64,000 nt of DNA from an archaeon GW2011_AR10 (GTDB lineage: Archaea; Iainarchaeota; Iainarchaeia; Iainarchaeales; GW2011-AR10). The notes beneath the pieces are model-generated. The model did not search any database, was not told the DNA's origin, and saw only the letters and a program-made list of their open reading frames with translations. The stretch lies in assembly GCA_000830275.1 (NCBI GenBank), contig CP010424.1:622782-686781 (forward strand), in the 5' to 3' direction. Shown here piece after piece: positions 5,690-60,875 of the stretch. Both the position numbers and the translations under genes were made by a program. Position 1 is the first letter of the stretch; each line of letters opens with the position of its first letter.

Positions 5690-5710
5690 TAGCAAACAGC
5701 AAATTAAAAA
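5690..5710 (+). promoter_or_regulatory. Half-site of the recurrent TAGCAAACAGC element (site D)
   Basis: TAGCAAACAGCAAATTAAAAA lies about 45 nt upstream of the 5755 start; it shares 18 nt with site C but has no second arm. Confidence 0.35.
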
Positions 5711-5754
5711 TTCTTTTTTCTTTTTGTTTTCCTTAAAGCGGAATACTTAATTAC

Positions 5755-8821: not shown

Positions 8822-9736
8822 ATGCTTGAGTTCTTTGAAGGCAGAGAATGGATGAAAGAATTTGAATCTGTTCTAAGGCAGAACAACTATGAAAAAGGGG
8901 TTAAGGGGTTTGTTAGGAGTGCAACAGTGCAGGGGGCAGTGCTTTTTCTTTTCACATTCAGCGCGCTACTGCTCACAGGACAAAATGAAGTATACATAAT
9001 TGTTTTTTCTTTTGCAGCTTTTCTCGCTCCAGGAACTCTGAATTACTTATTCCAGCTCTTTGTTTTCGATTTGAGGAGGAAAAAAATTGAGGAATTGGTT
9101 CCTGATTTGCTGCTGCAGGCATCAATGCTTCCAGCAGGCACATCGCTTGAAAAAGCAATAGAGCGTTTTTCAAAGGCAGACTACGGCGAACTCAGCAGGG
9201 AATTCAGGAGAGCGCATGAAAGCATATTGAGTGGTGCTTCGCCGGAAGAAGCACTGGAAAAAATGAACAATAGCAACAGGTCAAAAACACTGGAGAGAGC
9301 AGTAAACCTGATAGTGCAGGGAATAAATTCAGGGAGCGAGGCAAGCCACGTGTTCAAGGAAACCGCTGAAGACATCCTTGAAACAAACAGCATTCTCCGA
9401 GAGCGCTCCTCTTCAATGGTAGTGGAAAAATACACTCTGCTCCTAGGCGGGGGAATAATTGTGCCGTTAATTCTCGGCCTGCTGGTTGGAATGGTGCATG
9501 AATTGAACTTTAATTCGTTGGCGGAACTAGGAATTGGTCTGCCGACGGAGCAGCGCGAGGCAGTAATGCAGGCAGCACTGCTTGCAAATCAACTTTACTT
9601 GGTTGAGTATGCAATTATTGCGTCGGTTTTTGTGGCTTTCCAGGAATCTGATTCCAAGAAGGCATTGCTGTATGCTGCCGTGCTTCTGCCATTGAGCTTT
9701 ATCGCTTATCATGCGGGGCAGATGTTTGGCATTTGA
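8822..9736 (+). CDS. Type II secretion system F-domain platform protein (TadC-like half-platform)
   Basis: 304 aa; T2SSF-type region (VPDLLLQASMLPAGTSLEKAIERFSKADYGELSREFRRAHESIL) with N- and C-terminal transmembrane helices. Confidence 0.6.
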   Translation: MLEFFEGREWMKEFESVLRQNNYEKGVKGFVRSATVQGAVLFLFTFSALLLTGQNEVYIIVFSFAAFLAPGTLNYLFQLFVFDLRRKKIEELVPDLLLQASMLPAGTSLEKAIERFSKADYGELSREFRRAHESILSGASPEEALEKMNNSNRSKTLERAVNLIVQGINSGSEASHVFKETAEDILETNSILRERSSSMVVEKYTLLLGGGIIVPLILGLLVGMVHELNFNSLAELGIGLPTEQREAVMQAALLANQLYLVEYAIIASVFVAFQESDSKKALLYAAVLLPLSFIAYHAGQMFGI

Positions 9737-9750
9737 AAGCAGGACAAAAA

Positions 9751-9873
9751 ATGACGTCCTCCCCTGCCTAAAGGCAGAGGGTATCCCAACATTTAATGGA
9801 CGTCATGAACCCGTCAACGCAACACTTTGTCAAAAAGAAAACAGGTGTTTTTATTTCACTTGACAAAGTGTTG
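9751..9873 (+). other. Two adjacent long hairpins; the second (9820-9873) is copy 1 of a 54-bp conserved hairpin element
   Basis: Hairpin 1: 9-bp arms ATGACGTCC / GGACGTCAT (9751-9759 and 9798-9806). Hairpin 2: 14-bp perfect arms CAACACTTTGTCAA / TTGACAAAGTGTTG around a 26-nt T-rich loop. Second copy at 51858-51911. Confidence 0.5.
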
Positions 9874-9905
9874 AAAAGATACCGAGACCAATAACCGCGA
9901 CTTAA

Positions 9906-10193
9906 AAGCCGAGGCGCACGCCTAACACTCACACATTATACCTAAAAAAGCCGGAGGAGCTTTCTGAGATATTATCCCCAAAAAGAATAGAACTGCTCAA
10001 GTACATAATCAGCAACCGCAAAAAAAACAGAACAATAAGTGAAATTTCCAAAAAGTTAAATAGAAAGCAGGAAGCAATAAGCAGGGACGCAAATTTATTG
10101 GTAAAGCACAATTTAATCAGGAAGATCCGACAAAAGCAGATGACCTGCTTGAAGGCCATTTACGGTTCCCTGCAAATAAGGTTGACCGCCTAA
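9906..10193 (+). other. Winged-helix (ArsR/Lrp-like) regulator-like ORF with no canonical start codon
   Basis: Open frame from after TAA at 9903-9905 to TAA at 10191-10193 encodes ...EELSEILSPKRIELLKYIISNRKKNRTISEISKKLNRKQEAISRDANLLVKHNLIRKIR.... No ATG, GTG or TTG lies in frame upstream of the helix-turn-helix part. Confidence 0.35.
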
Positions 10194-10302
10194 AGTAGTA
10201 CCCCCAATCAAAATTTTTTTTAGAACCCGCCATGTTCTACATCTGAAAGCGATATCAAGGCAAGAATTAATAAGCAGTTTGCACTTTTTTTTATTGGATT
10301 TT

Positions 10303-12831: not shown

Positions 12832-15800
12832 CTAATTTTTTTCTCTTCGAATGTAAACAAAGACCGCAATTAATGAAACAATGAAAAGTGCTAAAACAAC
12901 AGGGTTTTCTGGAAGCGATGGAAGGTTAAGCAGGCTCTTGTCGGTTTCCCCTACCTGCAGGTTAAGCACGTTGCCTGAAGCAGTTGAAGTTACCTCGTTG
13001 TTGGGGCCAACTCTTGCAGAAATGCCTTCGCGGAAAGCCTCAATCAAAGGCAGCAGCTGGGCGTTTTCAGCATACCACAAGCCTTTCTCCGGGTCATAAT
13101 AGAATGCCCCGTTCCTTCCCTGCGCTGAAGTAAGAACCTCTGGCTTCTGCCCGTCGAAGGAAACTGTTGGAACACCGTTTTCTGCAGCAAAGTCAAGCGT
13201 GTGCTTTTTGCCGTTCTCGTCAATGAATTCAAGGCCATTTGGAGTGGCTCTTGCAGTTCCAGCAAAGTCTTGAATCTCGCCTGTTTCCTTATCTATTACC
13301 CTCAAATGGTCCTTGCATGCTCCTGTTTCATCTCTTTCCGAGCTCAGCACATACCTTTTGGTCGGGGTTTCAAATACTTGGAAGGGGCCGAATTTTTTTA
13401 AGGAAGTATTGAATGCAGCAACCTTTGCTTGGTTCGCGGGACTATTGGGGTCGCCTTCCACTTGGAAGTCAAGAGCTGGTTCCTCGCACTGGTTTTCAGG
13501 GTTAGTGGAGGAAGTCAGGTCAGTGTCAAGGCCCCTAACATCGTTTTGTTCAAGTATGCCCTGCTCGTGGTGCCTTAACCAAATAAGGTAACAGCCGTCA
13601 GGCCTTGCAACAATCATTCCATTCTTGAACTGGATTGACTTAAGCGAGCCAACTTCCGGAATCCCATCATTAGAGCTTGAGAGCGCAACATCATTGTTTG
13701 CAAGTACATTTATTGTTGAAATGTTTCCTACAGCAATTTTTCTTGGAACTCCTTCAGCGACAATCCTGTCACCTAATGGCCTGATGTTGGGGTGCGTAGT
13801 GGTTATAACGGAATTCACCAACCCAAATGTTGAGGTTAAATTGTTTCCCCCAACCAAAGGCAAACCAGTCTGCTGCATCACTCCATCCTGCAGGCACGCC
13901 CGCGCTTCAGGATGTGTTATGAATGCCTCGCCCCTTGCATTCACCTGAATTGCAACATCAGCTGTTGGAGGCAAGCAGACAGTTGTCAATGTTCTTGGAA
14001 CTTTTTTAGCTGGAATGCTTAGCTCAAGGTCATCTCCGGCCAACCTTGCTGCATCCTCGTTCTCTACAATAGGCTTTCCATCAAAGAGTATCTTGCCGTT
14101 CTCGAAATCAAAGTCAAGGCCTTTCCCTGTTGTTTTGTCTTTCACTGTTTCCTTTCCCTCTGTTTTGTATTCGCCGGAACTCATCTCGCAGCCCGGTCCA
14201 CACCAGAAATAGAACAGCTTTCTTCCCTTCAGCTGGCCTGAGCTCTGACCTTGAATGCTCAAGCGTGCCTGAACAATGTTTTTTTCCTCGGAATCATTCA
14301 CAAACTTTTTGATGTCATTTCCGATTCCTTCAACCTGCTCTTTGACCAATGAGTCTTCACTGCTGCCGCTGAATGCACCGGTTATCTGCTCGTTGAGGTT
14401 GCCAATAAAATTGGAAACTTTTTCAGTTGAAAGCTCCACGTTTCCTTCATCGTCCCTCTCCTCCATTGGAGGAACAAGGTAATGCACGAAGTAGCCTTCC
14501 TCAACATCAACGCAGTCCTGAAGCTTTGGAGCGTAAAGGGTTTGAATTGCAACAGTGCTGAATGCTCCAGGCCAGAAAAAGGTTGCGTAAGCCAAGGTTT
14601 CAATGCCGCCAAGCACTCCACCAATGCCGCCTTCTTCAGGCAGGAATGGAGCAATTTTTTTTGCTGTGGCATAACCAGGCAAAGAGAACACTGCCTGCTT
14701 GCAGGTTTTTGGTTCCCCTTCGGGCTGCACGAATTCCTGGCCCCTGTCCCTTGCCTCGAATTCTTCCTGCTCGTTGCTCCAGGCATCATGCAAATCAATT
14801 CGTTCCCCTTCAATGTCCCCAGTGCTTCCCTTCAAGTCCATGTGGTGCGCGAAAGCAATCAGGGTTTGGCCTTTCTGCAAGGCATCCTCCGAGCGCGTGT
14901 CCTCAAGAATGTAGGCATCGAAAGGCCTGCCGACAACAAAGAAGGGGTTAAAGTCCTCCAAGTTGGCTGAATTCAATGTGACAAAACAGTCAACGCATTC
15001 ATTGGGGCCAGTCAAGTAAAACGCAAGGCTTTCGGTTTCATTCCTCAGTTCCCTTCCTGAGAGCTTGTTGTAAAAGTCCGCAACAGGATTGAATTTATCG
15101 CTTACTTCATCAAGCACAAGCTTCCATGGAAGCTTGTTTGCAACCTGCACAAACAAATCGCCTTGATCAGAACCCTCATTTGCAAAGAAGTCAATGTATG
15201 CTTCAAAGTAAAGCGGCTTGTCTTGGAGCAGGAAGTCAACCTCGCTCCAAGTGTCTGGCAGCTGGTAAAGTGATAGGTCCTCAAAGCCTGCTCCTTTTTT
15301 GCTCCACCAGTAGCCAAACGGGTAAACAGTCCACTTTGCACCGCCCTTGAACGAAAAATAGCTCCTTATTATTTCGTCTTCTTCTGCCGCAAGCTTGTCA
15401 AGCCAGCTCCAGTAGCGCCTTGAAACCCAGTTTCGTTCACGGAGAGTATTAAGCATTAAGTCAGTATTCACTTTTGACCTCAAAACGTTTGAACCAACCC
15501 TTGCGTTTGTCAATGCAGATGAAAGCTCTTCCGGAGTAAGCACTTTAGAAGGCCCCCAGTTTCCTTGAACAATTGTAGGGTTGCCGCCAATCCTGTTCTG
15601 AATTAACGGAATGCTTGCATCAGTGTAATGGATGTATTCGCCCATGTCGGTTTTTACCCAAGTATTGGCATAGCCTTTGGCCGCCCTTTCAAGGTTGCTG
15701 TAACTTAAGGCCCTAAACTCTGTTGTTGTGGCAGGGTCAAAGCCATAAAGTATGAGGTTTCCAAACTCGTCAGTTTCATAGGCGCTGCGGTACTTGTTTA

Positions 15801-17661
15801 TCTCAGCCGTAAAGTTCCTCCAGTTGCCAGAGTCAACGAATTTATCCAGAATTACGCGGAAGTTCCTGTGCTCTGAGAACAAGTCAAGAACATCGCCTGT
15901 GTTCACCTGCTTTACTCCCTTGTCATACAGGCCCATATTGACATGCCTGACAATCCATTCAGGAAGGTCGGCTCCCATTTGGTCATCCGCAGTTGTGAGG
16001 AACTTTGCAAAAGAACGGCCATAATCAACAAGGGCTTTTTTCCCTTCAGGGTGCGTTAATGGGTCAATTCCTTGGTCCCTTAGTTTGTTAAAAATATTTG
16101 AGTATACTTTCTCTGACTGTTCCACTTCGTGGAGGCCGCCCCTCCATATTGTCCTCAGGTCTTTCATGACGCGGACAAACTCTGCTTTCTTTTCAAGAGT
16201 GTCAATTGATTCAAGGAATCCGCCTTTCGCCTGCTGTTTTCCCCACCAGTCAAAGAACTCCTGGGTTTTAATAATTGGGTAGCCTGTGCCATCAGAGCTG
16301 CCGATTGTCATGCTCTGCCAGAAGTCACGCCAGCCGTACTTGTCAATTTTTGACTGCATCCTTGAAACCTTAAGGTCTCCAAGGAAAGAGCCAGGAGTTT
16401 CAAATGTTGCCCTGAACCTGTCAGCGTAATCTGTGAGTTTTCCTTTCAGGCCAGGCAAGAGGCCTCTTCTCGCATTCCAGCCGAACATTTTTTTTGCTGC
16501 ATAGCCAAGGCTCGGCCCGAAATTTGTTACAACCATTTCAGCGCTCAGCCACTGGTTAAAGTATTTGTCAAACATCGAGTAAGTTGTTATAATGCAGTCG
16601 TTGCTGATGCAGTTGGTGCCGAATTCTGCGTCAAACTCCTGTGCAAGAATCGAGTTGGGAAGCAACTCTGTTTCCAGTCGAGTTGCGGTTTTAATGTGGT
16701 TGGGAAAAGAACATATGCTGTTATCCCACACCATTCCAGCTGAAGTGCATGAAGCTTCATCTCTTGGGGTTTCAATGCACTCTCCTGTTACCTTGCTGTA
16801 AAAGTTTTTTGCTCCATCAGTGCACTGCTCCTGGGAAACTTCTTTCCAGAGCTCTTCCTGTCCTTCCTCAGTGAAAACCGCTGCTGCCAGAACTTCCTGC
16901 TCTTCTGATGTGAACTCTGGCTTTTCTGTTGAGTTTTCATCAGTGAACCAGCTCTTTATTTTGTCGTATCCGCTGCCGAAAGCTTCCTTGATTGGTTTAA
17001 AATCTGCAGCAATTCCTGAACCGGAATTTCTGTAAGTGAGGTTTTTTCCTGTAAGCCAGCAGTTCTGGTCGTAGTCCTTGCATCTCCCTGTACGCAGAGA
17101 ATCATCAAGCACAAGACCGAAAGCGAAAGGCCCCTTTATGTGCCTGTTCAAGTAATTGCTTATCTCCCAAGGATTAAATTTTTTGTTTGGCAAGTCGGCT
17201 TTTGCCGTGACGTTTTCGTCCTGCTGCGATTTCAGAATGATGTTGTTTTCTTTCAGCTCATCCCTGTCATCAATCTCGTTTTCTGTTTGCTGTGGAAGAG
17301 CATCACCGCTTATCTCTTCTCCAACAAAGCCGTCTTTCAGGAGGTTTAGTATGTTGTTGCTTTCAGTTGGTGTAAGAGAACGGGACTCGCAGACATAACC
17401 CCTGTTTGGGAAAGGCGAAGGTATCGGCACTATAGGAGAAGTTGCAGGAGGAACTGCAGGTATTATTGGAGGGGGTTGTGGCACAGCATCAGGCGTCGGA
17501 TCAAGCACTGTTGCATCTGCACCCTGAAATGCGGCAGAATTTTCGTTTTCAGTTGGATTTAAAGGTTCTGGTGCCTGTTCAGCGTAATAGTCCTGCGCGT
17601 TGGCAGGATAAGTGCTAAGCAGAATTATTGCAATCAAGAAAAGGCTTGGAAGTTTCCTCAC
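12832..17661 (-). CDS. Large secreted surface protein (1,609 aa) with N-terminal signal peptide and C-terminal transmembrane anchor
   Basis: N-terminus MRKLPSLFLIAIILLSTYPANAQ; C-terminus PENPVVLALFIVSLIAVFVYIRREKN. Plus-strand ORFs inside it are treated as frame shadows. Confidence 0.6.
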   Translation of the reverse strand: MRKLPSLFLIAIILLSTYPANAQDYYAEQAPEPLNPTENENSAAFQGADATVLDPTPDAVPQPPPIIPAVPPATSPIVPIPSPFPNRGYVCESRSLTPTESNNILNLLKDGFVGEEISGDALPQQTENEIDDRDELKENNIILKSQQDENVTAKADLPNKKFNPWEISNYLNRHIKGPFAFGLVLDDSLRTGRCKDYDQNCWLTGKNLTYRNSGSGIAADFKPIKEAFGSGYDKIKSWFTDENSTEKPEFTSEEQEVLAAAVFTEEGQEELWKEVSQEQCTDGAKNFYSKVTGECIETPRDEASCTSAGMVWDNSICSFPNHIKTATRLETELLPNSILAQEFDAEFGTNCISNDCIITTYSMFDKYFNQWLSAEMVVTNFGPSLGYAAKKMFGWNARRGLLPGLKGKLTDYADRFRATFETPGSFLGDLKVSRMQSKIDKYGWRDFWQSMTIGSSDGTGYPIIKTQEFFDWWGKQQAKGGFLESIDTLEKKAEFVRVMKDLRTIWRGGLHEVEQSEKVYSNIFNKLRDQGIDPLTHPEGKKALVDYGRSFAKFLTTADDQMGADLPEWIVRHVNMGLYDKGVKQVNTGDVLDLFSEHRNFRVILDKFVDSGNWRNFTAEINKYRSAYETDEFGNLILYGFDPATTTEFRALSYSNLERAAKGYANTWVKTDMGEYIHYTDASIPLIQNRIGGNPTIVQGNWGPSKVLTPEELSSALTNARVGSNVLRSKVNTDLMLNTLRERNWVSRRYWSWLDKLAAEEDEIIRSYFSFKGGAKWTVYPFGYWWSKKGAGFEDLSLYQLPDTWSEVDFLLQDKPLYFEAYIDFFANEGSDQGDLFVQVANKLPWKLVLDEVSDKFNPVADFYNKLSGRELRNETESLAFYLTGPNECVDCFVTLNSANLEDFNPFFVVGRPFDAYILEDTRSEDALQKGQTLIAFAHHMDLKGSTGDIEGERIDLHDAWSNEQEEFEARDRGQEFVQPEGEPKTCKQAVFSLPGYATAKKIAPFLPEEGGIGGVLGGIETLAYATFFWPGAFSTVAIQTLYAPKLQDCVDVEEGYFVHYLVPPMEERDDEGNVELSTEKVSNFIGNLNEQITGAFSGSSEDSLVKEQVEGIGNDIKKFVNDSEEKNIVQARLSIQGQSSGQLKGRKLFYFWCGPGCEMSSGEYKTEGKETVKDKTTGKGLDFDFENGKILFDGKPIVENEDAARLAGDDLELSIPAKKVPRTLTTVCLPPTADVAIQVNARGEAFITHPEARACLQDGVMQQTGLPLVGGNNLTSTFGLVNSVITTTHPNIRPLGDRIVAEGVPRKIAVGNISTINVLANNDVALSSSNDGIPEVGSLKSIQFKNGMIVARPDGCYLIWLRHHEQGILEQNDVRGLDTDLTSSTNPENQCEEPALDFQVEGDPNSPANQAKVAAFNTSLKKFGPFQVFETPTKRYVLSSERDETGACKDHLRVIDKETGEIQDFAGTARATPNGLEFIDENGKKHTLDFAAENGVPTVSFDGQKPEVLTSAQGRNGAFYYDPEKGLWYAENAQLLPLIEAFREGISARVGPNNEVTSTASGNVLNLQVGETDKSLLNLPSLPENPVVLALFIVSLIAVFVYIRREKN

Positions 17662-17705
17662 GCTATCGCCTTAGTTTTTCCTTTAGGATAATGTGTTTTC
17701 CATTA

Positions 17706-17750
17706 TAGCAAACAGCTTTGATTTTTGAACATTTAATTTGCTGTTTGCTA
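17706..17750 (-). promoter_or_regulatory. Recurrent inverted-repeat element, site A
   Basis: TAGCAAACAGC-N23-GCTGTTTGCTA, 45 nt upstream of the minus-strand start at 17661; its reverse complement matches site C with a near-identical spacer. Confidence 0.5.
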
Positions 17751-17842
17751 GTTGCAAAACGCAGTTTTTGTTCATATTCAAATACATAAGCATTTTGCTA
17801 TATATATAACTTATTATTATTCGAAATTAGGCAAGGCTTTGC

Positions 17843-24852: not shown

Positions 24853-27210
24853 TTAAGCCAAAAATCCGCCGACGAGAATGTTGGAAATAATTATGCTTAA
24901 AACGAAAATTATAACTGAAATTGGGAAAAAGCGCGCAATGTTTATTCTCACCAGCAAATCGTTGTCCTCCTCTATTTTGGTGGTGAAGTAAGTCATTATG
25001 AGGAGAAGCTCCACAACGTAGATTGCAACGATGATTACGAACTGCGTTGGAGTAGCCATTCCAGCAACTGCTGCCGGGTCAATGAAGCTTCCAACGTTTA
25101 TGCCAGAAAACGTGTTTGGAATGCCTGCTCCTCCTGGAACATCAAGGTTGCTCAGATCAAGTTCCGTTGCAATATTGGAAGAAGCGATGGAGGAAAGGGT
25201 TATTATTACGATTTTCTGCAGGCTTGTTGTAATGCCCAAAACCATCGGCGCAATGAATAGGCTCATTGTCTTCATCATTCCTGTTACATCAGAAACCAAA
25301 ATCTTCAAATTGTTTGCAACCTTTTCCGCGTTGTCGAGCTGGATGCTTAACGCAATCATTGTCCTGGCAGCAACGTTCACCCCCAATTGCACTGAATCAA
25401 CAAGCAGCCTCACTGAACCGCTAATCAACGAGCTTGGAATGTTTTTCAATGAACCATAGTTTGGGTCAAAGAATGCCTGCTCTAATGGCATTGCAAGCAA
25501 GGCAATGTTGTCAAGCGTTTTCGAGAAAATCCTTTTCGATATTTTGAACTGTGGCAAAAAATCCATTGTGTGCTTTAATGCTTCCTCCACCGGCTTGTTT
25601 TCACCCATGCGGGAAGCAAGAATGTAGATTGAGTCCTTGAACTCTGACTCCATTTCAACAATTTCAAGCTGGGCTTTCCGCTTGTAAATGTTGTTGTAGT
25701 AGAGGTAAACAAACACTGAAAGTGAAACGGTTATGAGCAGGCCGAAAATGAAATTGTAGGGAGTAATATCGTTGGCCGGCTTCGTGAAAAATGCCTGTTC
25801 CTCGCTTTTCACGCGTTTCTCTGCTTCCTCAACAGGAAAACCCTGCGCAATCAGCTCATTGTAAAGCACTCCTGTGGGAATGTCAAAGTATTTCAATTGG
25901 TAGCCTGCTTTTGAAAGAACTTCAGTCCTTTGCTTGTCTAATGCAAGCAGCTGCGGCGTGCCTTCCTCAAGGCCCAAAGCATCGTAAAGAATTTTTGGCG
26001 GAACTCCTTGCTGTGAAACAAAAAAGGAAATTGAGCTTCCTGCAATCAACACAACAACAACCACGAAGAAAATGCTCACAAAGCCGTTGCCTAACCTCAT
26101 TGTGCCCTTCGGCGGCAAACCCGGAAAGTTGTCCTTTATTTCAGGCGCAACATACGTTGGTGGGCGCTTGCTTATAACGGAGAAAGCAAACCAAAGCGTA
26201 ACCAAAGGAATTATTATGTTGTAAATGGCAAACAAAACAATTGGGTTTGCAAGCGGTGCGCCGCTGAAAGAGCTCCCTACAGGAAGAATGATTATCAGAA
26301 TCAATGGAAGCAGCACCCCAACATAGAAGAGAATCATTGTTGGCTGGTTGAGGTCGCGAGCATACTGCTCCATTTTGTTTTTTATTGACTCAAGTATTTC
26401 ATCCATTGTTTGGTCAAGCAAAGCAAAACGCTTTGCTTCAGTTGTTTCAATCACTGAAGCGCGGATTCGCATCAACGCTTTCTTGAATTCATCGCTGAAT
26501 GCACCCCAGCGGTAAGCCAGTGCATCGCTTGCTTCTGCAACAGACGAGTAAACTCCCAACTGGACATCCCACAAAAGTTTTTTGAAGTCTTCAGCAATTT
26601 TGCCCCTGCCGTGCTCTGCTGCAAACTCAATGCTTTTCTCCAGGTTCGGGCTTAACTTCATTGACATAACCATGTAGCCGAGGATTTCAGGAACATAAGT
26701 CAAAGCACGCACCTGCTCTGCTCTTGCCTCCTCCAAGGGATAGTTTTGAACATAATATGTTGCAAAAACCACCATGCCAAGCAATGGGAGGAGAATGTAG
26801 ATTGGCGTAAGAAAGGTTGCCCCGCCAACGAATAGGTTTACAACCACTATTGCAGGGGACAGGAAAATAATTCCTGCAATTACTATTGCAGCAAGAAAGC
26901 TCACAATCAGCACGAACTTGTACGCTGCACCAAGCTCTTCCCCATTTAGCTCCCAACCCAGAAACTCCACTGCCTTCTTGTTCTGCTCTGAAAGCGCTTC
27001 ACCTTTTCCTAGTGAAGGAGCCATTGCGTGAATGCGCTTGCAGAACCTAACAAAAGGGTGCTGTTTTCTCCTTACAAGCGTTCTTTCCTCATTCTTGAAC
27101 TCGTCCTTGACCACGGCTATTTCCCTGTAAAGCTCTCCAATAGAGCTTGGCCCATCAAACAGCTTCTCTTCTTCTTCCTGCTCTCTTTCTTCCCTGTCTT
27201 TTCTCGCCAT
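24853..27210 (-). CDS. Type IV pilus platform membrane protein (FlaJ/TadC-like, two-domain, 785 aa)
   Basis: Polytopic; helical bundles alternate with two soluble regions, as in two-domain T2SSF platforms; sits directly downstream of the ATPase. Confidence 0.55.
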   Translation of the reverse strand: MARKDREEREQEEEEKLFDGPSSIGELYREIAVVKDEFKNEERTLVRRKQHPFVRFCKRIHAMAPSLGKGEALSEQNKKAVEFLGWELNGEELGAAYKFVLIVSFLAAIVIAGIIFLSPAIVVVNLFVGGATFLTPIYILLPLLGMVVFATYYVQNYPLEEARAEQVRALTYVPEILGYMVMSMKLSPNLEKSIEFAAEHGRGKIAEDFKKLLWDVQLGVYSSVAEASDALAYRWGAFSDEFKKALMRIRASVIETTEAKRFALLDQTMDEILESIKNKMEQYARDLNQPTMILFYVGVLLPLILIIILPVGSSFSGAPLANPIVLFAIYNIIIPLVTLWFAFSVISKRPPTYVAPEIKDNFPGLPPKGTMRLGNGFVSIFFVVVVVLIAGSSISFFVSQQGVPPKILYDALGLEEGTPQLLALDKQRTEVLSKAGYQLKYFDIPTGVLYNELIAQGFPVEEAEKRVKSEEQAFFTKPANDITPYNFIFGLLITVSLSVFVYLYYNNIYKRKAQLEIVEMESEFKDSIYILASRMGENKPVEEALKHTMDFLPQFKISKRIFSKTLDNIALLAMPLEQAFFDPNYGSLKNIPSSLISGSVRLLVDSVQLGVNVAARTMIALSIQLDNAEKVANNLKILVSDVTGMMKTMSLFIAPMVLGITTSLQKIVIITLSSIASSNIATELDLSNLDVPGGAGIPNTFSGINVGSFIDPAAVAGMATPTQFVIIVAIYVVELLLIMTYFTTKIEEDNDLLVRINIARFFPISVIIFVLSIIISNILVGGFLA

Positions 27211-27224
27211 AAAATGGTTTCACT

Positions 27225-29504
27225 TCAAGACTTTGTTTTGGCAATTATTCCCTTAATTAAGTGGTTTTTTACCCAGTTCTTCCACTCGCCCAGAACCTCT
27301 TCGTAGTCAACGGAACCGTGTTCTTCAAGCTGGTCCTCCTTCAATAGCATGAGCTTGTTGTTTGCAAGAACCGCGTTTTCTGCTTCAAGCAGAGAAGGAA
27401 TTGAATTCTTGTTCTTCATTTCCACCAAAAACTCTTTTGCCGAGCCATTCATTCTTATGCTCCTCCAGATTTCTTCAAGGTTGAGGCCGCTCATCTTGCT
27501 TATCTTTGAGAACATCTCGCTTTCCTTAAGGTTGTCTTCAAGCAGTTCAAGCTCGTCTTTTTTTGCGTCATAACTCATTAGGTCCAGCAAACCGCCCTCT
27601 CTTTCAGGATCCTCAATCCAGTGCTTTTTCACCTCTGTTATCTGGACAATTCTCCTGTTCCTCTGCAGTGACCCGGAAAACCTTATCGGCCTTGCAACCA
27701 CGACAACATCAGTTGCCTTAAACGAAGTGTTTGGAACATCCAAGTCATTCACTACCCTATCCCACACAGAGTAAGCGCTTTCACCGTGGATTGTTCCCAT
27801 CACAATGTTTCCCGCAGCACCAATTCTCATTGCCTCGTACAGAACCCTTGCTTCCTTGCTCCTCACTTCACCTATGATTAGGGCAGAATCTCCCAAACGA
27901 AGCGCTGTCCTCAAAGCTTCCTCTGGCGCAACCTCAGAGGAAGTGCCGCCAGCAGCAATAGGTGAACGCGTTTTAAGCCTCTGGATGTTGAAGCCTATGT
28001 TCTTCATGTAAGGAACTGGAAGTTCCAAGGTGTCTTCCTGCACAATTATTCTCGTGCTCTGGATAATTTCAAGGATTAGTGCCTGCATCAAAGAAGTTTT
28101 TCCGCTGCCCCTTGAACCAGTAACCAGCATTGTTGCCTGTGCGTCAACGAAAAAAGAAAGCAGGCCTGCTGAAAGAGGAGTTAAAAATTTCACGTCAACA
28201 AACTGGGGCAGCGTCCAAGGAGTAACCTTATGCAGCCTGAAAGCAAACGCGATTCCGCTCGGCGCAAGCGGCGGGCCAATGACTGCAACCCTTGTCTCCA
28301 TGTCAGGCAAATCAAAGTCCAGGACTGGATGAGCTTCATCAAATGGCCTGCCTGACATTGCACGCATTTTTGATACAAGCGAACTTGCCTCTCCTTCAGT
28401 GTAAAGAATGTTGGTTTCGCACTGGCCAAAGTCAGAGTGAATAACGTAAAGCGGCTTCTGCCCGATGGGAGAATCAATGAAAATGTCTGTGAGGTTCCTG
28501 TCAGAGAGCAGCAGTTCAAGGATTCCGTAGCCGACAGTGTACCTTGCAACAATCTGGCTTAACTCAATTATTTCATCGTTGCCAAGAGAAATATTGTTCT
28601 CTTTCGCGATGTCCTTGATTGTTGACTGGTAAACGCGCTCAAAGTACTTCCTGCTTTTCGCAAGCTCGCTTAAAGAGGTTTTTCCAGGCCTGTACGATGC
28701 AACGATTTCCCTTGTCTTGCTCAAAATGAAGTACTTGTCCGGGGGCAGGGAATACTCTGGGGGATTGACAATGTAAAGCTTCTGCGGCTTGTTCGGGTGC
28801 TTGAATATCTGCACTGTTGTATCCTTCACTTGGTATTCGTCCAGAAGCTCCAGCTTTTCCTCTTCTTCAAACAGCAGCCTTGAACCGATAAAGGAGGGTT
28901 TTACCTGCGCTTCAAAGAACGGCTTGTACATTTCTTTTGTGTCAGGAACTGTTTTCAGCTTCAAAAGAATCTGTTTGGCTTTCTGGACAAGCATTGTGCT
29001 GTCAAGGTTCTTCTTTATGTAAAGCAGGGTGCGAAGGTAAACATCAGAGTAATGCTCTTTGTCCTCAGAGCTAAAGCGCTCCCTTTCCTTGCTGATGGCG
29101 CGGAGCAGTTCAAGGTAAGAATAAATCGGGTCAAACAACAGGGTATCGTGAGTGATTTTAACAATAGTGTTGTGCCTTTCACCGAAGTCTTTTTCGCCCT
29201 CAATTTTTGCATCCCCTAAAAACTTGTAGCTCCACACGCTTTCAATCTCTAATTTTTGCGCAACCCTCGAAATTTCCTCCAGAAGCTTTTTCTGCTCCTC
29301 GCTGTAAACCCTTTCGTACACTTCAGCCAAAACAATGTCGTCAACTTCCACTTCTTGAAGCAGGCTGAAGACATGGTACCTGCATGCAGGGTCATCAGCG
29401 ATTGAGGAACTATAAACGCAGTCGCGACAGTCAAAAATCAGGTGCCTCTTGTTGCCTTCCTCTTTAACCGCCCAAGGGCCTACTTCAAAACCGCCGATTT
29501 TCAA
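27225..29504 (-). CDS. Type IV pilus assembly ATPase (FlaI/ArlI/PilB-like) with extended N-terminal domain
   Basis: Walker A TGSRGSGKTSLMQAL, Asp box IIVQEDTLEL, Walker B/His box ALIIGEVRSKEA...GTIHGESA; 759 aa, about 200 aa longer than typical FlaI. Confidence 0.8.
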   Translation of the reverse strand: MKIGGFEVGPWAVKEEGNKRHLIFDCRDCVYSSSIADDPACRYHVFSLLQEVEVDDIVLAEVYERVYSEEQKKLLEEISRVAQKLEIESVWSYKFLGDAKIEGEKDFGERHNTIVKITHDTLLFDPIYSYLELLRAISKERERFSSEDKEHYSDVYLRTLLYIKKNLDSTMLVQKAKQILLKLKTVPDTKEMYKPFFEAQVKPSFIGSRLLFEEEEKLELLDEYQVKDTTVQIFKHPNKPQKLYIVNPPEYSLPPDKYFILSKTREIVASYRPGKTSLSELAKSRKYFERVYQSTIKDIAKENNISLGNDEIIELSQIVARYTVGYGILELLLSDRNLTDIFIDSPIGQKPLYVIHSDFGQCETNILYTEGEASSLVSKMRAMSGRPFDEAHPVLDFDLPDMETRVAVIGPPLAPSGIAFAFRLHKVTPWTLPQFVDVKFLTPLSAGLLSFFVDAQATMLVTGSRGSGKTSLMQALILEIIQSTRIIVQEDTLELPVPYMKNIGFNIQRLKTRSPIAAGGTSSEVAPEEALRTALRLGDSALIIGEVRSKEARVLYEAMRIGAAGNIVMGTIHGESAYSVWDRVVNDLDVPNTSFKATDVVVVARPIRFSGSLQRNRRIVQITEVKKHWIEDPEREGGLLDLMSYDAKKDELELLEDNLKESEMFSKISKMSGLNLEEIWRSIRMNGSAKEFLVEMKNKNSIPSLLEAENAVLANNKLMLLKEDQLEEHGSVDYEEVLGEWKNWVKNHLIKGIIAKTKS

Positions 29505-29524
29505 CGCAATTCACCTTTAAAATT

Positions 29525-29612
29525 GCGAATTCCCTTTATTAATAGGTGGTTCAGTGGAATTCGCGTAACTCAAAAACCACCCATAATCCACCGACTTAGG
29601 CCGGTGGTTTTT
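29525..29612 (+). other. Conserved structured intergenic element, copy 1, followed by hairpin plus T-run
   Basis: 9-bp inverted repeat GCGAATTCC / GGAATTCGC encloses GGTGGTT, which can pair with the downstream AACCACC; then CCACCG-N8-CGGTGG followed by TTTTT. Core GGTGGTTYAGTGGAATT...AACTC...AAAAACCACC recurs reverse-complemented at 51926-51999. Confidence 0.45.
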
Positions 29613-32350: not shown

Positions 32351-32935
32351 GTGAATTTGTTGGAGAAGCGCTATAGAAACCTCGCCCTGTTAGTGGTTGC
32401 AGTAATAGTTTTAGCTTTGGCTTGGCTTCTTTTTTCCTCTGTTTCCTTTGAGTCAAAGCTCTCGGAAATTGATGCAGTGTGGAAAGAAAACGGCCTTAGC
32501 GTGGCTGGTTTTCCTTACCGAAATTCACAGGAATTTGACGCGCTCAGCCTGCAGGAAATTGAGTCACTGAAGGAAAGGCTTGGCAGGGTTGAGCCGGCAA
32601 GAATTGAATCAGTTGAACAGTTTGTGGCATTAAACAAAAAGCTGTTGGCTCTTGCAACCGCTAGGAAACTTTTGGAGGAAAAAGTTCTTGCAATCGAATC
32701 AACAGCAGGCATATGCAGTGAACTCAGCCTTCTTGATGAACTGCTAGAAGCCCAAAGGGAAGTGAACGAAAAATCAAAATCGTTTGTTGGAAGCTACAAT
32801 TTGTTCGTTGAGTCTTTTCCTAGGGAAGCCGAGACAGCATCGCTTCCACAAATTGAGGACAACGGCCTTGAACTGGAGTTCCTGCTCGCGCAACAGGAGG
32901 AAAATGCTGCAGCAGTCAGGGGTGAGTGCGCTTGA
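32351..32935 (+). CDS. Hypothetical membrane-anchored protein
   Basis: N-terminal transmembrane helix (LALLVVAVIVLALAWLLF) then a helical, Leu/Glu-rich region. Confidence 0.4.
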   Translation: MNLLEKRYRNLALLVVAVIVLALAWLLFSSVSFESKLSEIDAVWKENGLSVAGFPYRNSQEFDALSLQEIESLKERLGRVEPARIESVEQFVALNKKLLALATARKLLEEKVLAIESTAGICSELSLLDELLEAQREVNEKSKSFVGSYNLFVESFPREAETASLPQIEDNGLELEFLLAQQEENAAAVRGECA

Positions 32936-35900
32936 AGAAAAAACCTTTATTCTTGCTTTTGCTGCTTGCACTGCTTTTAACTGCCGCTAACGCAGAAGCA
33001 CAAATTGCTGCCTCTGAGTGGAATGAAGGCGTTATTGCAACCAGCTTCAGCTGCAGGAAAAGCAACTGCGTTGCATTGCCCTCTCGTTTGGCTTTAGGCA
33101 AGAGAGTTGAGGTGTGCTCTTCCAAAGGATGCGTGACCGCGGTTGTAGCAGATGTTGGGCCTTGGTGCAGGCAGGATGACCCCTACGTGCTTGGCAACAG
33201 CAGGCCTTTTGCTGAGCAGCGTGCAGGAGAAAACCTTGATGATGCATTAAAATTTCCTGAAGCAGGAGAGGACACCTTGGACTGCAGAACTAACCCGAAA
33301 GTTGGAGGGCCTATTCCAAGGAAAAGCAACGGCGCAGGCATTGACTTATCGGTTGATGTTGACAGGGAACTAGGCAACAACGGAAAAGGAATTGTGAGCT
33401 GGAGGTTCATTGATGATCCAACCAATTCGCTGTTGAAATTGATTGACACTGCAAGAAAATCCCAGCAGGAGTCAATTCCAAATATTTTTTCGGCTTCAAT
33501 TAGTTCAGGCGCTCCGCTTGACTTCTTCAGGGGCAAAACAGTTCTTATTGATGTAGGGCACGGTGGAAGGGATCCCGGCGCAGTTTTCACCACCAAAAAC
33601 GGGCAGACAGTGAACGAGAAGGACATGGCACTCTCGTATTCAAATAAACTCAAAGAAGTGCTTGAATCAAACGGGGCGAGGGTTTTGATGACAAGGGAAA
33701 CCGATGTTTACCTTTCCTTGAGCGAAAGGGTTGACATCATTAACAGGGAAAAACCTGATGTTGCAATTTCAATGCACATTAACTCTGCAAGGCTGCCTGT
33801 TTTCAGGGGCACACCACTGGTTTTCGTGGCATGCCTTTTCAGGGAGGAGGGCAAAAACGGCAACGGCTTGGTTGACATAGCAGAATTTGCCTCATTTAAC
33901 CAGTTGTGCCAGCCTAACCCTGCTGAAAGCCACCAAGGCAGCGTAATAGTGGCATCGAACGTTACAAACAAGTTAAGCGGGTTTCTTACCGGAATGCGCG
34001 TAGCTGATGCAACTGTTCTGGTTAGGTCAAATTCTCCTGTTGTGTTGTTTGAGGTTGGCTTTGGCTCGAACAAGGATGAACTTGAAAGAATGCTGACTCC
34101 ATTGCACCAGACAACCATAACTCTTGGCTTGGCAGCAGCAATACAGGATTACCTTGGAAAAACGAAAAAGGCAGCAGTAACTGGAACCGAGCTGAAGGAA
34201 ATTGAGCTGGAGGAAGAACTGGATTATGTTGTGCTGAACTTTGGTGACCTAAGCGAACTCGAAAGGAGGGGGGTGCCAAACCCAATCACTTCAATTGCAA
34301 GCGGCACAAAATTCTACAAGAACGGGAACGAAGTGGATGCGTTCGCAACTTCGATTGTTCCTGATTCGGCTGGCAGCGAAAACAAGCTGGCAGTGTACAG
34401 GCTGCAACAGTACTCATCATACAATTTTGAGGTGAAGCTCACAGGCTACTTTGACAACAAGGTGATTGGCACAGGAAGCTTTGGGCCTATTCCTGGAAAG
34501 GCAAAGCCGGAGCTAAACGCAAATGTAAAGTGGAATTTTGCAGGGGAAGCAGCAGGCAATGTTGCTCCAACCGCTGTTGCAAATGACATAAATGCAGTGA
34601 AAGGAAAAGCGGTTTTGCTTGACGCTTCAAGGTCTTTTGACTCCGATGGAACAATTGAAGGTTACTTGTGGCTTGATTCAAGTCACCCGGATGAAAGCCC
34701 TGCAAATGGGAAAAGAGTTGCAGAGGCAACTGTTTCAGCTGTGTTTAACACTTTGGGAGAGCACCTTGTAATTCTTTACGTAACAGATGACAAGGGGGCA
34801 ACCGGCTCGGAAACTTTTTACGTGAATGTAGCCAAGGAACAAGAAGGCATAGTGGAAGAAGGAGCTCCGAGGATTGAGAGACTTGTGCTGAATTATGAGT
34901 ATTCTTTACGAATCAGATACAACGAGGACGGCACTATCAGGGAAACAGATGTTATTTCCCTGCAGCTCGGAAAAAACCAATTAATCTCTGCCGCGTTTTA
35001 TTCCCCTGTTGAGTTTTATCGCGCGCAACTTGAGCTCTGGGCATTCCAGGAGGGAATTACTCCAAGCGCGGCAAGCATTGAGAGGAGAATGATAATTGCG
35101 GCTGATGAACGAGGCACTAATGCTCATGAGGCAGGCACTGACATATTGGTGCCAATTGATGAGGGAAAAATTGTCAGCCTAGACGAAATAGATTACGGAA
35201 AAATTGGGACAGGGCAGTGGAACAGTTCAGTGAAAGAGTTCGTGCAAAAATTCAAGGACAACCAGTATTATTTTAGGGTTGAAACAAGGATTGAAAAGGA
35301 AAGCAATGGTAAAAAGGTTGGCTCACAATTCGTGCCGGTAAGCATATCCTTGTTTGAGGAGCTTCCGCGCATTGAGAGCTGCAGTTCCATTAGGGAGTGC
35401 CTTGCCCGCGGCAGCCAGATTGTTTCCAACAGTCTTTTGAGGGCAGGCGAACAGGCAGAAGATTTTGAGGGCTTGAAGTGCGTGCAATTAGAGGAAGGAA
35501 AGCAGCTGGATGTTGTCAGTGCTCCATGCATTTCAGCTGAAAGGATTGATGAAATCCTTGCAGCAAACGATTCTCCGGCAGCTGGAACAGGAAAGGCATT
35601 CTATGATTACGGTTTAAAGTACGGCATTGACCCAACAGTTGCCTTGGCTTTCTTTAGGGAAGAGTCAACTTTCGGAAAGTTTGGGGCAGCAAACAGGACA
35701 AAATCAATCGGCAACATCAGGTATTACGATACTGCTGACCCAAATGATGCTGCTTACTGCCCAACGCAGAGAAATGACAATGGATTCTGCTCTTATGACA
35801 GCTGGGAGCAAGGCATCGAGCACTTCTACAAGTACATTAATGGCCCGCTTTACGTTGCAGCAGGCAACAATACTCTGGAGGAAATAGTGCCAATTTACAT

Positions 35901-35976
35901 TTCCGCTTCTTCAACTGAAACAAGCAGCATCATCAGCAAAATGAGAAGCTGGTTGGCTGAGTGGAGGGAACAGTAG
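32926..35976 (+). CDS. Secreted multi-domain peptidoglycan hydrolase (amidase-3 plus lysozyme/glucosaminidase-like)
   Basis: Signal peptide; RlpA/3D-like segment (GVIATSFSCRKSNCVALPSRLALGKRVEVCSSKGCVTAVVADVGPW); amidase-3 motifs (VLIDVGHGGRDPGAV...ARVLMTRETDVYLSLSERVDIINREKPDVAISMHINSA); PKD-like segment (LLDASRSFDSDGTIEGYLW); C-terminal lysozyme-like region (GIDPTVALAFFREESTFGKFGAANRTKSIGNIRYYD). Confidence 0.65.
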   Translation: MRLKKKPLFLLLLLALLLTAANAEAQIAASEWNEGVIATSFSCRKSNCVALPSRLALGKRVEVCSSKGCVTAVVADVGPWCRQDDPYVLGNSRPFAEQRAGENLDDALKFPEAGEDTLDCRTNPKVGGPIPRKSNGAGIDLSVDVDRELGNNGKGIVSWRFIDDPTNSLLKLIDTARKSQQESIPNIFSASISSGAPLDFFRGKTVLIDVGHGGRDPGAVFTTKNGQTVNEKDMALSYSNKLKEVLESNGARVLMTRETDVYLSLSERVDIINREKPDVAISMHINSARLPVFRGTPLVFVACLFREEGKNGNGLVDIAEFASFNQLCQPNPAESHQGSVIVASNVTNKLSGFLTGMRVADATVLVRSNSPVVLFEVGFGSNKDELERMLTPLHQTTITLGLAAAIQDYLGKTKKAAVTGTELKEIELEEELDYVVLNFGDLSELERRGVPNPITSIASGTKFYKNGNEVDAFATSIVPDSAGSENKLAVYRLQQYSSYNFEVKLTGYFDNKVIGTGSFGPIPGKAKPELNANVKWNFAGEAAGNVAPTAVANDINAVKGKAVLLDASRSFDSDGTIEGYLWLDSSHPDESPANGKRVAEATVSAVFNTLGEHLVILYVTDDKGATGSETFYVNVAKEQEGIVEEGAPRIERLVLNYEYSLRIRYNEDGTIRETDVISLQLGKNQLISAAFYSPVEFYRAQLELWAFQEGITPSAASIERRMIIAADERGTNAHEAGTDILVPIDEGKIVSLDEIDYGKIGTGQWNSSVKEFVQKFKDNQYYFRVETRIEKESNGKKVGSQFVPVSISLFEELPRIESCSSIRECLARGSQIVSNSLLRAGEQAEDFEGLKCVQLEEGKQLDVVSAPCISAERIDEILAANDSPAAGTGKAFYDYGLKYGIDPTVALAFFREESTFGKFGAANRTKSIGNIRYYDTADPNDAAYCPTQRNDNGFCSYDSWEQGIEHFYKYINGPLYVAAGNNTLEEIVPIYISASSTETSSIISKMRSWLAEWREQ

Positions 35977-36932: not shown

Positions 36933-36986
36933 CAAAACGCTTAAGTAATTGAACATTGAAACAAAACGCTTAAGTAATTGAACATT
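36933..36986. repeat. Tandem direct repeat, two copies of CAAAACGCTTAAGTAATTGAACATT, 29-bp period
   Basis: Units at 36933-36957 and 36962-36986, immediately upstream of site B. Confidence 0.6.
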
Positions 36987-37004
36987 TAAATTGCATTTTG
37001 CATC

Positions 37005-37048
37005 TAGCAAACAGCAATAAAAAGTTCAAAAATATAAGCTGTTTGCTA
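37005..37048 (+). promoter_or_regulatory. Recurrent inverted-repeat element, site B
   Basis: TAGCAAACAGC-N22-GCTGTTTGCTA, about 55 nt upstream of the 37103 start; spacer differs from sites A and C but keeps GTTCAAAAAT. Confidence 0.5.
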
Positions 37049-37102
37049 TACAATAAACTTAGTAATGTTAAGTAATGGAATGCTGTGGGTTAAGGTGGTT
37101 GG

Positions 37103-40743: not shown

Positions 40744-40956
40744 ATGGCTAATGGGAAAACCGTTGTTTTGAAGAAGGAAGCTATTAATGAATTAAGGAAA
40801 GAAGCTAACCGGCTTAGAAGTGATTTTAAGGGGTATCTTGAGGATTTGGAGCTGATGAGCAATCCTGCTTTTTGGAAATCTGTTGAGGAGTTGCAGTCCG
40901 GAAAATTGAAGAAATATGATTCGCTGGAAGAATTTTTCAAAGAGCTTGAAAGCTGA
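40744..40956 (+). CDS. Putative antitoxin partner of the RelE-family toxin
   Basis: 70 aa, charged; its TGA overlaps the toxin ATG (ATGA at 40953-40958). Assigned by position, not motif. Confidence 0.5.
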   Translation: MANGKTVVLKKEAINELRKEANRLRSDFKGYLEDLELMSNPAFWKSVEELQSGKLKKYDSLEEFFKELES

Positions 40957-41204
40957 TGCCTTATAGTTATTCTTTTTCCAGCGAATTCAAAAAGTCATTC
41001 AAGAAACTTGACCGCAGAATGAAAATTCTTGTTAAAAAGAAGATTGCCAAGATTGCAGAGAACCCTGAACTTGGAAAACCGTTGCATAAGCCTTTGCAGA
41101 ACTTCAAAAGTGAAAGAGTTGAGAAAATGCGGATAGTCTATGCTTTTGACGGCAAATCAATCGAGTTTGCATTGCTTGACGACAGAGGACATGTTTACGG
41201 TTAA
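40956..41204 (+). CDS. relE: RelE/ParE-family toxin
   Basis: 82 aa; pattern FKKSFKKLDRRMKILVKKKIAKIAENPELGKPL...RVEKMRIVYAFDGKSIEFALLDDRGHVY matches RelE-type mRNA interferases. Confidence 0.65.
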   Translation: MPYSYSFSSEFKKSFKKLDRRMKILVKKKIAKIAENPELGKPLHKPLQNFKSERVEKMRIVYAFDGKSIEFALLDDRGHVYG

Positions 41205-41691: not shown

Positions 41692-41783
41692 TTGGCTGGA
41701 GAAGGGAGCATCCTTAATATATTAGTTTTCACTTTTAATACTACTATATAATGCGTTGAATGCTTTGCGCGCGAGGCCTTTTC

Positions 41784-51857: not shown

Positions 51858-51911
51858 CAACACTTTGTCAAAAAGAAAATAGGTGTTTTTATTTCACTTG
51901 ACAAAGTGTTG
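51858..51911 (+). repeat. 54-bp conserved hairpin element, copy 2
   Basis: One mismatch (loop C to T) relative to 9820-9873; arms identical. Confidence 0.6.
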
Positions 51912-51925
51912 AACCACTATATGCA

Positions 51926-51999
51926 GTCCACCAAAATTATTTGGTGGTTTTTGAGAGTTACAAATTCCACTAAAACCACCCATTAAAATAGGTGGAATT
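51926..51999 (-). other. Conserved structured intergenic element, copy 2 (reverse orientation)
   Basis: Reverse complement reads AAATTCCAC...GGGTGGTTTTAGTGGAATTTGTAACTCTCAAAAACCACC. Outer stem pairs are AAA:TTT here versus GCG:CGC in copy 1, i.e. covarying. Confidence 0.45.
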
Positions 52000-52111
52000 T
52001 GTTTGATTTTAATACTTGGCATGCAACACAGAATTGGTTTAAATAATATAGTAACTTTAATATAGATAAAACGCATTAGTTATTGGTAAAACAAAGGTTT
52101 TCCGTGGTTTC

Positions 52112-60667: not shown

Positions 60668-60717
60668 CCTATGGCAAAATGCTTATGTGTTTGAACAAAA
60701 AATTGCATTTTTGAAAC

Positions 60718-60761
60718 CAGCAAACAGCAAATTAAATGTTAAAAAATCAAGCTGTTTGCTG
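60718..60761 (+). promoter_or_regulatory. Recurrent inverted-repeat element, site C
   Basis: CAGCAAACAGC-N22-GCTGTTTGCTG, 115 nt upstream of ATG 60876; spacer and about 40 nt of upstream flank match the reverse complement of site A. Confidence 0.5.
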
Positions 60762-60875
60762 TACGCTTAAACATAACAAAAAGTTATGATTAAAACCATA
60801 ACCAAAAAGTATATTAATATTAGATTAATTAGATTACTTATATTAATTTGGAAATTACCTGCGCACGGTGAATAA

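Follow-up and report, generated by a model that had tools for sequence, protein, structure and literature searches.

A 54-nt hairpin beside two pilus-related genes probably belongs to a family of short interspersed palindromic repeats in Diapherotrites genomes

Why should nearly the same 54-nt hairpin stand twice in one stretch of an archaeal chromosome, each time behind a pilus-related gene? The window, i.e., the whole 64-kb stretch analysed here, contains CAACACTTTGTCAA-N26-TTGACAAAGTGTTG at 9820-9873 and again at 51858-51911, both on the plus strand, and the initial annotation proposed that this element may link the two loci, as a small RNA, an RNA-processing site or a protein-binding palindrome. 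Its description of the element is accurate. Perfect 14-bp arms (copy 1: 9820-9833 and 9860-9873; copy 2: 51858-51871 and 51898-51911) enclose a 26-nt centre in both copies (9834-9859 and 51872-51897), and the one mismatch reported between them, C at 9842 against T at 51880, is indeed the sole difference; identity extends over 56 nt (9820-9875 vs 51858-51913; repeat family D7). Copy 1 begins 83 nt after the end (9736) of an open reading frame at 8822-9736 coding for a T2SSF-family (TadC-like) protein (PF00482, 4.4e-15). Copy 2 begins 50 nt after the end (51807) of a 490-aa open reading frame, whose label 'pilin-like' is reasonable given that its N-terminus, MTGIKGFTLFTALVAFILIV, looks like a type IV pilin-type signal. 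Both distances agree with those first given. The supposed link between the pilus loci finds no support, because other members of the family adjoin unrelated genes and because the syntenic spacer of relatives carries neither of the hairpins found behind the TadC-like gene, as shown below.

The palindrome is not a product of chance. With up to two mismatches, the 14-mer of the arm occurs seven times in the window against 1.5 ± 1.2 expected, a count reached in 0 of 100 shuffles, and four of the seven matches are the four arms themselves. Folding, which had been suggested as a check, gives a strong structure of about −20 kcal/mol for copy 2 on either strand (in 81 nt of context, −20.2 kcal/mol with z −3.55 on the plus strand and −21.2 kcal/mol with z −3.13 on the minus strand). 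Each copy forms a stem of 14 bp. The module is self-contained: arms CAACACTTTGTCAA and TTGACAAAGTGTTG around an A/T-rich centre of 24-26 nt. A covariance-model search, also suggested at the outset, scored both copies (model R1: 73.2 bits for copy 1, 72.8 bits for copy 2) and returned no others; with nhmmer and R1 only copies 1 and 2 were found in the window, and R1 detected no others in Diapherotrites loci totalling about 190 kb. Nor are single arms in excess, the 64 kb holding three extra matches (each with two mismatches) outside the four arms where 1.5 are expected, and a pair of DNA uptake sequences was rejected on this count.

The module does recur outside the window, in other Diapherotrites contigs, and is conserved there. 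The family scan demanded 11 + 11 exact arm bases with a gap of 18-36 nt and also matched many unrelated palindromes; its metagenome match counts are lower bounds, as it missed Ga0209211_10000053, which contains copy 2. Complete 14-bp arms are present in L001 (an archaeon MAG), L021, L026, L028, L032, L043, L046, L050, L053 and L054, of which L021, L026, L028, L043, L046, L050 and L053 all come from one metagenome, and a diverged copy lies at L032 150-202. A match at L021 967-1018 proved to be a different palindrome and was discarded. In all, the module occurs at at least ten distinct loci in several genomes, at a density of two copies in the 64-kb window and one in the 21 kb of L078. With respect to lineage, the T2SSF protein of the window is identical to an NCBI protein named 'Candidatus Diapherotrites archaeon', found on groundwater contigs of up to 1.24 Mb, and L050 is of Diapherotrites origin judging from the names of its DUF373 homologues.

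Next to these copies stand assorted housekeeping genes with no relation to pili. The module adjoins an ABC-2 permease in L001, a DeoC aldolase and a histidine phosphatase in L026, LonB and DUF373 in L050, CoaE in L043, a GT4 glycosyltransferase in L046, and the divergently transcribed genes for CDP-archaeol synthase (CarS) and an S49 peptidase in L021. The copies of L021 and L046 lie in divergent (5') spacers, so a role in 3' untranslated regions is not general. The window, in turn, holds two T2SSE/T2SSF sets, PAC2 and very large surface proteins, and since it is so rich in pilus and surface genes, we regard the two pilus-related neighbours as coincidental. Our preferred reading is that the 54-nt sequence belongs to a family of short interspersed palindromic repeats in Diapherotrites genomes, similar to REP, BIME and MITE elements, with coincidental pilus neighbours; we consider it likely, although well short of certain.

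Conservation within the family is concentrated in the arms. Whereas the centres (24-26 nt, A/T-rich) differ between copies at about half of their positions, the copies share AAGAAA where the centre meets the 5' arm and TTCA(C/A/G) where it meets the 3' arm, and an extension RWGAAW is conserved just inside both arms. Across 12 distinct copies, 10 of the 14 stem pairs never vary, and the changes seen include a single compensatory one in the diverged copy of L032 (C-G to U-A) and a U-G wobble in L026, a pattern that favours conservation acting on the arm sequence more than covariation. This arm conservation is partly ascertainment, given the 11 + 11 exact bases in the search pattern; the three outermost arm pairs, which lie outside it, are conserved in 11 of the 12 copies. 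Because copies were found with intact arms and half-diverged centres, the arms must change much more slowly than the centres despite this ascertainment. A hairpin that is purely selfish or neutral is not what identical arms around diverged centres suggest; they suggest that the sequence is specifically recognised or has a function.

Such a pattern brings in the alternative that a protein of the host or of a mobile element, e.g., a nucleoid protein or a Y1 enzyme of REP/RAYT-like or IS200/IS605-like type, binds or cleaves the specific arm sequence, either in duplex form or extruded as a hairpin, with the repeat persisting through that interaction. The fourteen identical arm positions, the retention of the outermost pairs and of RWGAAW, and the placement of the module at the tips or centres of other hairpins (see below) all speak for it. 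Nevertheless, the fetched neighbourhoods contained no candidate enzyme gene, the comparison of flanks revealed no conserved flanking tetranucleotide or target, and lone arms in the window are not in excess. We consider this alternative unlikely but deserving of weight; it overlaps with the interspersed-repeat reading, for which it would supply the mechanism.

Orthologous spacers differ in whether they carry the module. In relatives whose T2SSF is 44-51% identical to that of the window, the gene order is kept (L065, L067), namely T2SSE, T2SSF, T2SSF, PAC2, two unknown genes and a giant gene on the minus strand, while the spacer between the TadC-like gene and PAC2 measures 180 nt in L065/L066 and 47 nt in L067 against 543 nt in the window; these syntenic spacers contain neither hairpin. 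That gene order across copy 1 is kept in relatives without the repeat also eliminates the two copies as attachment-site repeats of a 42-kb island (9820 to 51911). Within the window spacer (9737-10278), no gene is called in public assemblies, a minus-strand 76-aa open reading frame at 9929-10159 has no Pfam match, and the remainder, 9874-10278, shows no unusual degree of structure (z +1.3 and +0.3). A second comparison concerns the spacer downstream of DUF373, which holds the module in L050 and L078-81, holds a MITE-like repeat of about 100 nt without the module in L082-87 (86% identical), and is short and empty in L088-90 (DUF373 79-88% identical); three of the four relatives checked have short empty spacers.

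The same MITE-like repeat reveals that the module is nested in other repeats. In L021, L028, L043, L046 and L053, the hairpin has shared flanks of about 50 nt to its left and right, beyond which the DNA is unrelated. Together the flanks form the ~100-nt repeat TATAGCAAACC...GGTTTGACATA, which begins and ends with TA and has terminal inverted repeats that are imperfect; its loci are unrelated, and it may contain the 54-nt module or lack it (L021 1017-1168, L028 715-862, L043 1099-1311, L046 5298-5449, L053 371-566 and L082 4262-4356). Aligning filled with empty repeats gives a clean 55-nt indel (alignment A2): the empty form reads CTGTCA followed by AACCAC, and the filled form has A-CAACAC...GTGTTG between these two blocks. 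The indel could also be a deletion of the palindrome, a point against reading it as an insertion. L043 and L053 carry a further hairpin insert of about 48 nt within the MITE-like repeat.

A second context is provided by H1, the hairpin that the initial annotation had placed at 9751-9806 just upstream of copy 1 and which does fold strongly there (−23.9 kcal/mol, z −4.55). On the plus strand, it consists of a 9-bp outer stem, ATGACGTCC/GGACGTCAT, an inner hairpin, CCCCTGCC-TAAA-GGCAGAGGG, and a 16-nt unpaired 3' bulge. H1 is a member of a second repeat family, with relatives at L021 4506-4440 (minus strand), L026 1536-1425 (minus), L001 5583-5690 and, in two copies, L032 1297-1245 (minus) and about 255-215 (minus); between the window and L021, the inner stem differs by three compensatory changes and the outer stem by one. 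In L001, L026 and L021, the upstream gene ends on the TGA within the conserved 5' motif of the family, (A/G)TGAC(G/A)(T/C)CC; in the window this TGA lies in frame, six codons past the T2SSF stop. In the alignment, every H1-family copy is followed by C(C/T)GT(C/A)AAC and then by another hairpin. In the window and L032, the module comes after H1 and the linker motif CCGTCAACG (9811-9819, plus strand), which joins H1 to the 54-nt hairpin; in L001 and L026, the module takes the place of the inner-hairpin tip of H1; and in L021, an H1 copy and CCGTCAACG precede a different hairpin.

Further repeat pieces lie on the 3' side. Copy 1 is followed at 9874-9914 (plus strand) by a right-hand extension, AAAAGATACCGAG...CTTAAAAGCCGAGG, in common with the composite repeat in L032 (1183-1143; 86% identity over 42 aligned columns, blastn). 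Downstream of copy 2 by 16 nt lies a small terminator-like hairpin, CCACCAAAATTATTTGGTGG plus TTTTT (51928-51953, plus strand). The terminator scan detected two terminator-like sites against 0.2 expected, and hairpin-plus-T-run units are also present 3' of the module in L050, L026 and L001. Overlapping the small hairpin is a repeat, GGTGGTTTTTGAG..GTTAC..AATTCCACT..ACCACC (51936-52012, plus strand; inverted repeat I7), which has a reverse-complement copy without the 54-nt hairpin at 29517-29587 (blastn, 76% over 79 nt). Taken as a whole, the arrangement is a mosaic of short hairpin repeats, similar to that of bacterial BIMEs and BOX elements (PMC3184786).

Several observations accompany these flanking pieces. 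The 51936-52012 repeat comes with paired terminator-like hairpins on both strands (51928-51947 and 51995-51976), and in L050 a related AATTCCAC hairpin precedes the module. In one assembly, L077, 28 nt (GCAACACAGAATTGGTTTAAATAATATA) are duplicated in tandem at about 2440-2500, which corresponds to about 52030-52070 of the window, within A/T-rich DNA immediately before the gene for the 2669-aa protein. In L032, composite H1-plus-module repeats in the same orientation flank, on both sides, a 220-aa open reading frame (393-1055) composed of degenerate GFGRELA/QGWGRELV-like repeats; a search of 5.8 billion proteins retrieved no homologue, so it may not be a real gene.

The window also holds features that are not part of these composites. 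A divergent second pair of T2SSF (785 aa) and T2SSE (759 aa) is encoded at 24853-29504 on the minus strand, a ParE-like toxin gene lies at 40956-41204, and a further open reading frame of 1609 aa occupies 12832-17661 (minus). A 1016-aa protein (32926-35976) combines N-acetylmuramoyl-L-alanine amidase, PKD and glucosaminidase domains, the amidase and glucosaminidase being bacterial cell-wall hydrolase domains in a DPANN archaeon. At least four giant surface proteins (2842, 2669, 2444 and 2249 aa, from window open reading frames and L119 gene calls) with Ig-like, CarboxypepD_reg and SpaA-type domains are encoded in tandem (window 41760-50288, 52112-60121 and 60876 onward; L119 18765-26099 and 26127 onward), a run broken only by the 490-aa pilin-like gene and a gene of 156-161 aa. 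The window also contains another repeat family, of about 90-120 nt, at 36933-37051, 60670-60764 and 17704-17802 (inverted), with a partial copy at 5690-5713. It has an internal palindrome, TAGCAAACAGC...GCTGTTTGCTA, and a 29-nt tandem duplication at 36933/36962, and its stem motif, TAGCAAAC, recurs in the TA-flanked repeat of other Diapherotrites loci. Since the full copies lie 43-112 nt upstream of gene starts, in the orientation of the gene (37103 plus, 60876 plus, 17661 minus), their position suggests a putative promoter or 5'-leader module.

The flanks of the MITE-like repeat also provide a reference for the orientation of the module. When they are aligned, the centres of L043 and L046 read AAGAAACAT..ATTCAC and those of L021, L028 and L053 its reverse complement, i.e., in three of the five MITE copies the centre is inverted relative to homologous flanks. 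As L043 and L053 share the extra insert yet differ in orientation, at least two inversions, or recombination between copies, must have occurred. At the window loci, all ten assemblies of copy 1 have one centre orientation, as do all ten of copy 2, so inversion of the centre is rare and not a fast switch. Variation among these assemblies is small: the position of the mismatch in copy 2 is C in L072, as in copy 1, and L058 has an A to C change at the loop-closing pair. Contigs end inside or beside the composite in four assemblies, in keeping with the breaks that repeats often cause.

Flipped centres would also be produced by a programmed invertible switch, with a promoter or terminator in the centre turned over between the 14-bp inverted repeats. 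Both orientations within homologous flanks, and the repeated inversion or inter-copy recombination that L043/L053 and L046/L021/L028 call for, speak for such a switch, but the two orientations are found only among paralogous copies, no recombinase gene lies nearby, and the terminator-like hairpin right after copy 2 would leave a centre promoter little to drive. The invertible segment, at 24-26 bp, is also far below the size used by known recombinase-driven invertons. We thus rejected an inverton, and a programmed switch seems extremely improbable. Passive, hairpin-mediated inversions of 4-50-bp loops are well known in chloroplast non-coding DNA, where they likewise involve short inverted repeats, recur, and need no dedicated recombinase (PMC12371153, citing Kelchner and Wendel 1996). 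The chloroplast cases differ in being passive mutations at single-copy plastid hairpins, whereas here the hairpins are copies of a dispersed archaeal repeat.

Presence and absence, nesting and centre inversion together point away from the functions first suggested and towards an interspersed, indel-prone or mobile palindromic repeat. Among the classes already described, REP and BIME elements of Enterobacteria and Pseudomonas resemble the module as short extragenic palindromes between genes, often at 3' ends or between convergent genes, that combine with other short motifs into mosaics; here the partners are H1, CCGTCAACG, the right-hand extension and the TA-flanked repeat. The module is not a REP as defined: REPs are about 20-40 nt, G+C-rich and imperfect, with a conserved 5' tetranucleotide, occur in hundreds of copies and are tied to RAYT transposases, whereas the module is archaeal and 52-54 nt long, A/T-rich (27-35%, about 30% G+C), with perfect arms, a large centre and no RAYT seen. 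Bacterial MITEs such as Correia/CREE, ERIC, RUP and SPRITE share with it terminal inverted repeats (here the 14-bp perfect arms plus RWGAAW), an intergenic location, and presence/absence polymorphism between relatives, the module occupying at least ten non-homologous loci; the ~100-nt host repeat (L021/L028/L043/L046/L053/L082) has TA at both ends, as in ERIC and Correia. The 54-nt module differs from them in reaching about half the length of the smallest one listed, in being nested in other repeats and in having no clear target duplication: when the flanks of all copies and the empty/filled pair were compared, a single, ambiguous duplicated A was the most that emerged. Neither the window nor the fetched neighbourhoods contained a gene for a transposase, integrase or recombinase.

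Integron attC sites, including those of archaeal integrons, are palindromes that likewise come right after a stop codon and have a 5' end in ...AAC and a 3' end in GTT.... They often overlap stop codons, as does the H1 hairpin. However, attC sites are imperfect, with extrahelical bases, a cassette array and an integrase, none of which accompanies the perfect stem of the module. The RYYYAAC/GTTRRRY consensus is not consistently present, as the 5' end does not fit RYYYAAC and, at the 3' end, GTTGAAC fits in some copies while GTTGAAA, GTTGTTG and GTTGTCG do not. Because the neighbours are syntenic core genes, no integrase was found and the stem is perfect, attC was rejected; a target hairpin of a diversity-generating retroelement (DGR) was dismissed since the neighbours are unrelated core genes. 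We also looked for a viral or plasmid origin. The arm pattern had no matches in IMG/VR, the patterns for arm plus centre and for the MITE ends matched nothing but coding DNA, by chance, and BLAST against phages and plasmids returned no relevant match.

Could the module nevertheless act at the transcript level? Most window genes have T5-T8 runs close after the stop codon rather than hairpins, which makes the initial remark that the hairpin is stronger than a typical archaeal terminator a fair one, and the two strongest gene-downstream hairpins in the window are those at the two copies studied here. Both centres carry T5 on the plus strand (9848-9852; 51886-51890) and T4CT5 on the minus strand, and the T5 is the first on the sense strand after each gene. 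Since the module usually lies just after a stop codon, it would probably be transcribed into the 3' untranslated region as a stem-loop of roughly −20 kcal/mol, and the window copies, by supplying the first oligo-T tract downstream of the gene, may incidentally shape transcript 3' ends or stability. [quoted passage not shown]

This line of thought leads to a cis-acting RNA element, close to the initial proposal, in which a bidirectional terminator or 3'-end stabiliser is selected at the pilus and pilin loci. It would account for the positions 83 and 50 nt after stop codons, for the T-runs on both strands, and for the module standing between a stop codon and a hairpin-plus-T-run unit in L050, L026, L001 and at copy 2. 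Yet the element is not kept at orthologous loci and occurs beside unrelated genes and in divergent 5' spacers; no T-run directly follows the stem, so neither copy appears in the terminator scan (AAAAG follows the stem of copy 1 and AACCAC that of copy 2), which rules out a bacterial-type intrinsic terminator; the forward-strand T5 is absent from most family members, the conserved tract being TTTCTTTT on the other strand; and covariation is almost nil. Selection of this sort appears quite improbable. Particular copies may act as terminators or stabilisers, but this does not define the family, given that the forward T5 is unconserved and that two copies lie in 5' spacers.

A small non-coding RNA gene, or a processing site, present in several copies would fit a structure that is stable on both strands, a TATA-like TTTTTATTT in the centre, and repetition with conserved flanking motifs. 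We judge it very improbable: the centre, the would-be single-stranded functional part, is the least conserved and can be inverted, and the flanks differ between copies. Scanning the whole window against Rfam at the gathering threshold gave 0 matches, and the best match in permissive scans of both loci, HgcC on the minus strand, scored 21 bits against a gathering threshold of 50 and was not reproduced in ten related loci. No tRNA or tmRNA was found in the window.

Returning to an interspersed palindromic repeat, we envisage that the module spreads or disappears as a whole, whether by the action of a trans-acting enzyme that would recognise the arms or by hairpin-driven replication slippage and template switching, and that recombination between the arms may flip the centre. 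More specifically, the arms might be the recognition site of a putative hairpin-specific (single-strand DNA) recombinase or transposase of Iainarchaeota that prefers hairpin tips and centres, as in H1 and the TA-flanked repeat, and flips the centre; we put this forward as a speculative and rather unlikely proposal. If it were true, a palindrome of about 54 nt would be one of the smallest self-contained mobile units known, and DPANN archaea would possess a modular system of 3'-end repeats made up of the module and the stop-codon-anchored H1.

On our reading, the 54-nt hairpins form a new family of interspersed palindromic repeats in a DPANN lineage. Literature and Rfam searches yielded no described repeat family of this kind for these genomes: a literature search with the sequence retrieved unrelated primers only, and searches on Diapherotrites or DPANN repeats gave nothing relevant. 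If our reading is correct, an interspersed palindromic repeat family is now documented in DPANN archaea, whose genomes are very compact. Such repeats break metagenome assemblies at their sites, inflate a few spacers (as between the TadC-like gene and PAC2, 543 nt vs 47-180 nt in relatives), and can wrongly pass for regulatory RNAs. The biological pay-off would be moderate unless a dedicated enzyme or a transcript-level role turns up. Even so, with its nesting, a clean empty/filled pair and recurrent centre inversion, the family would offer a small natural system for the gain, loss and flipping of palindromes.
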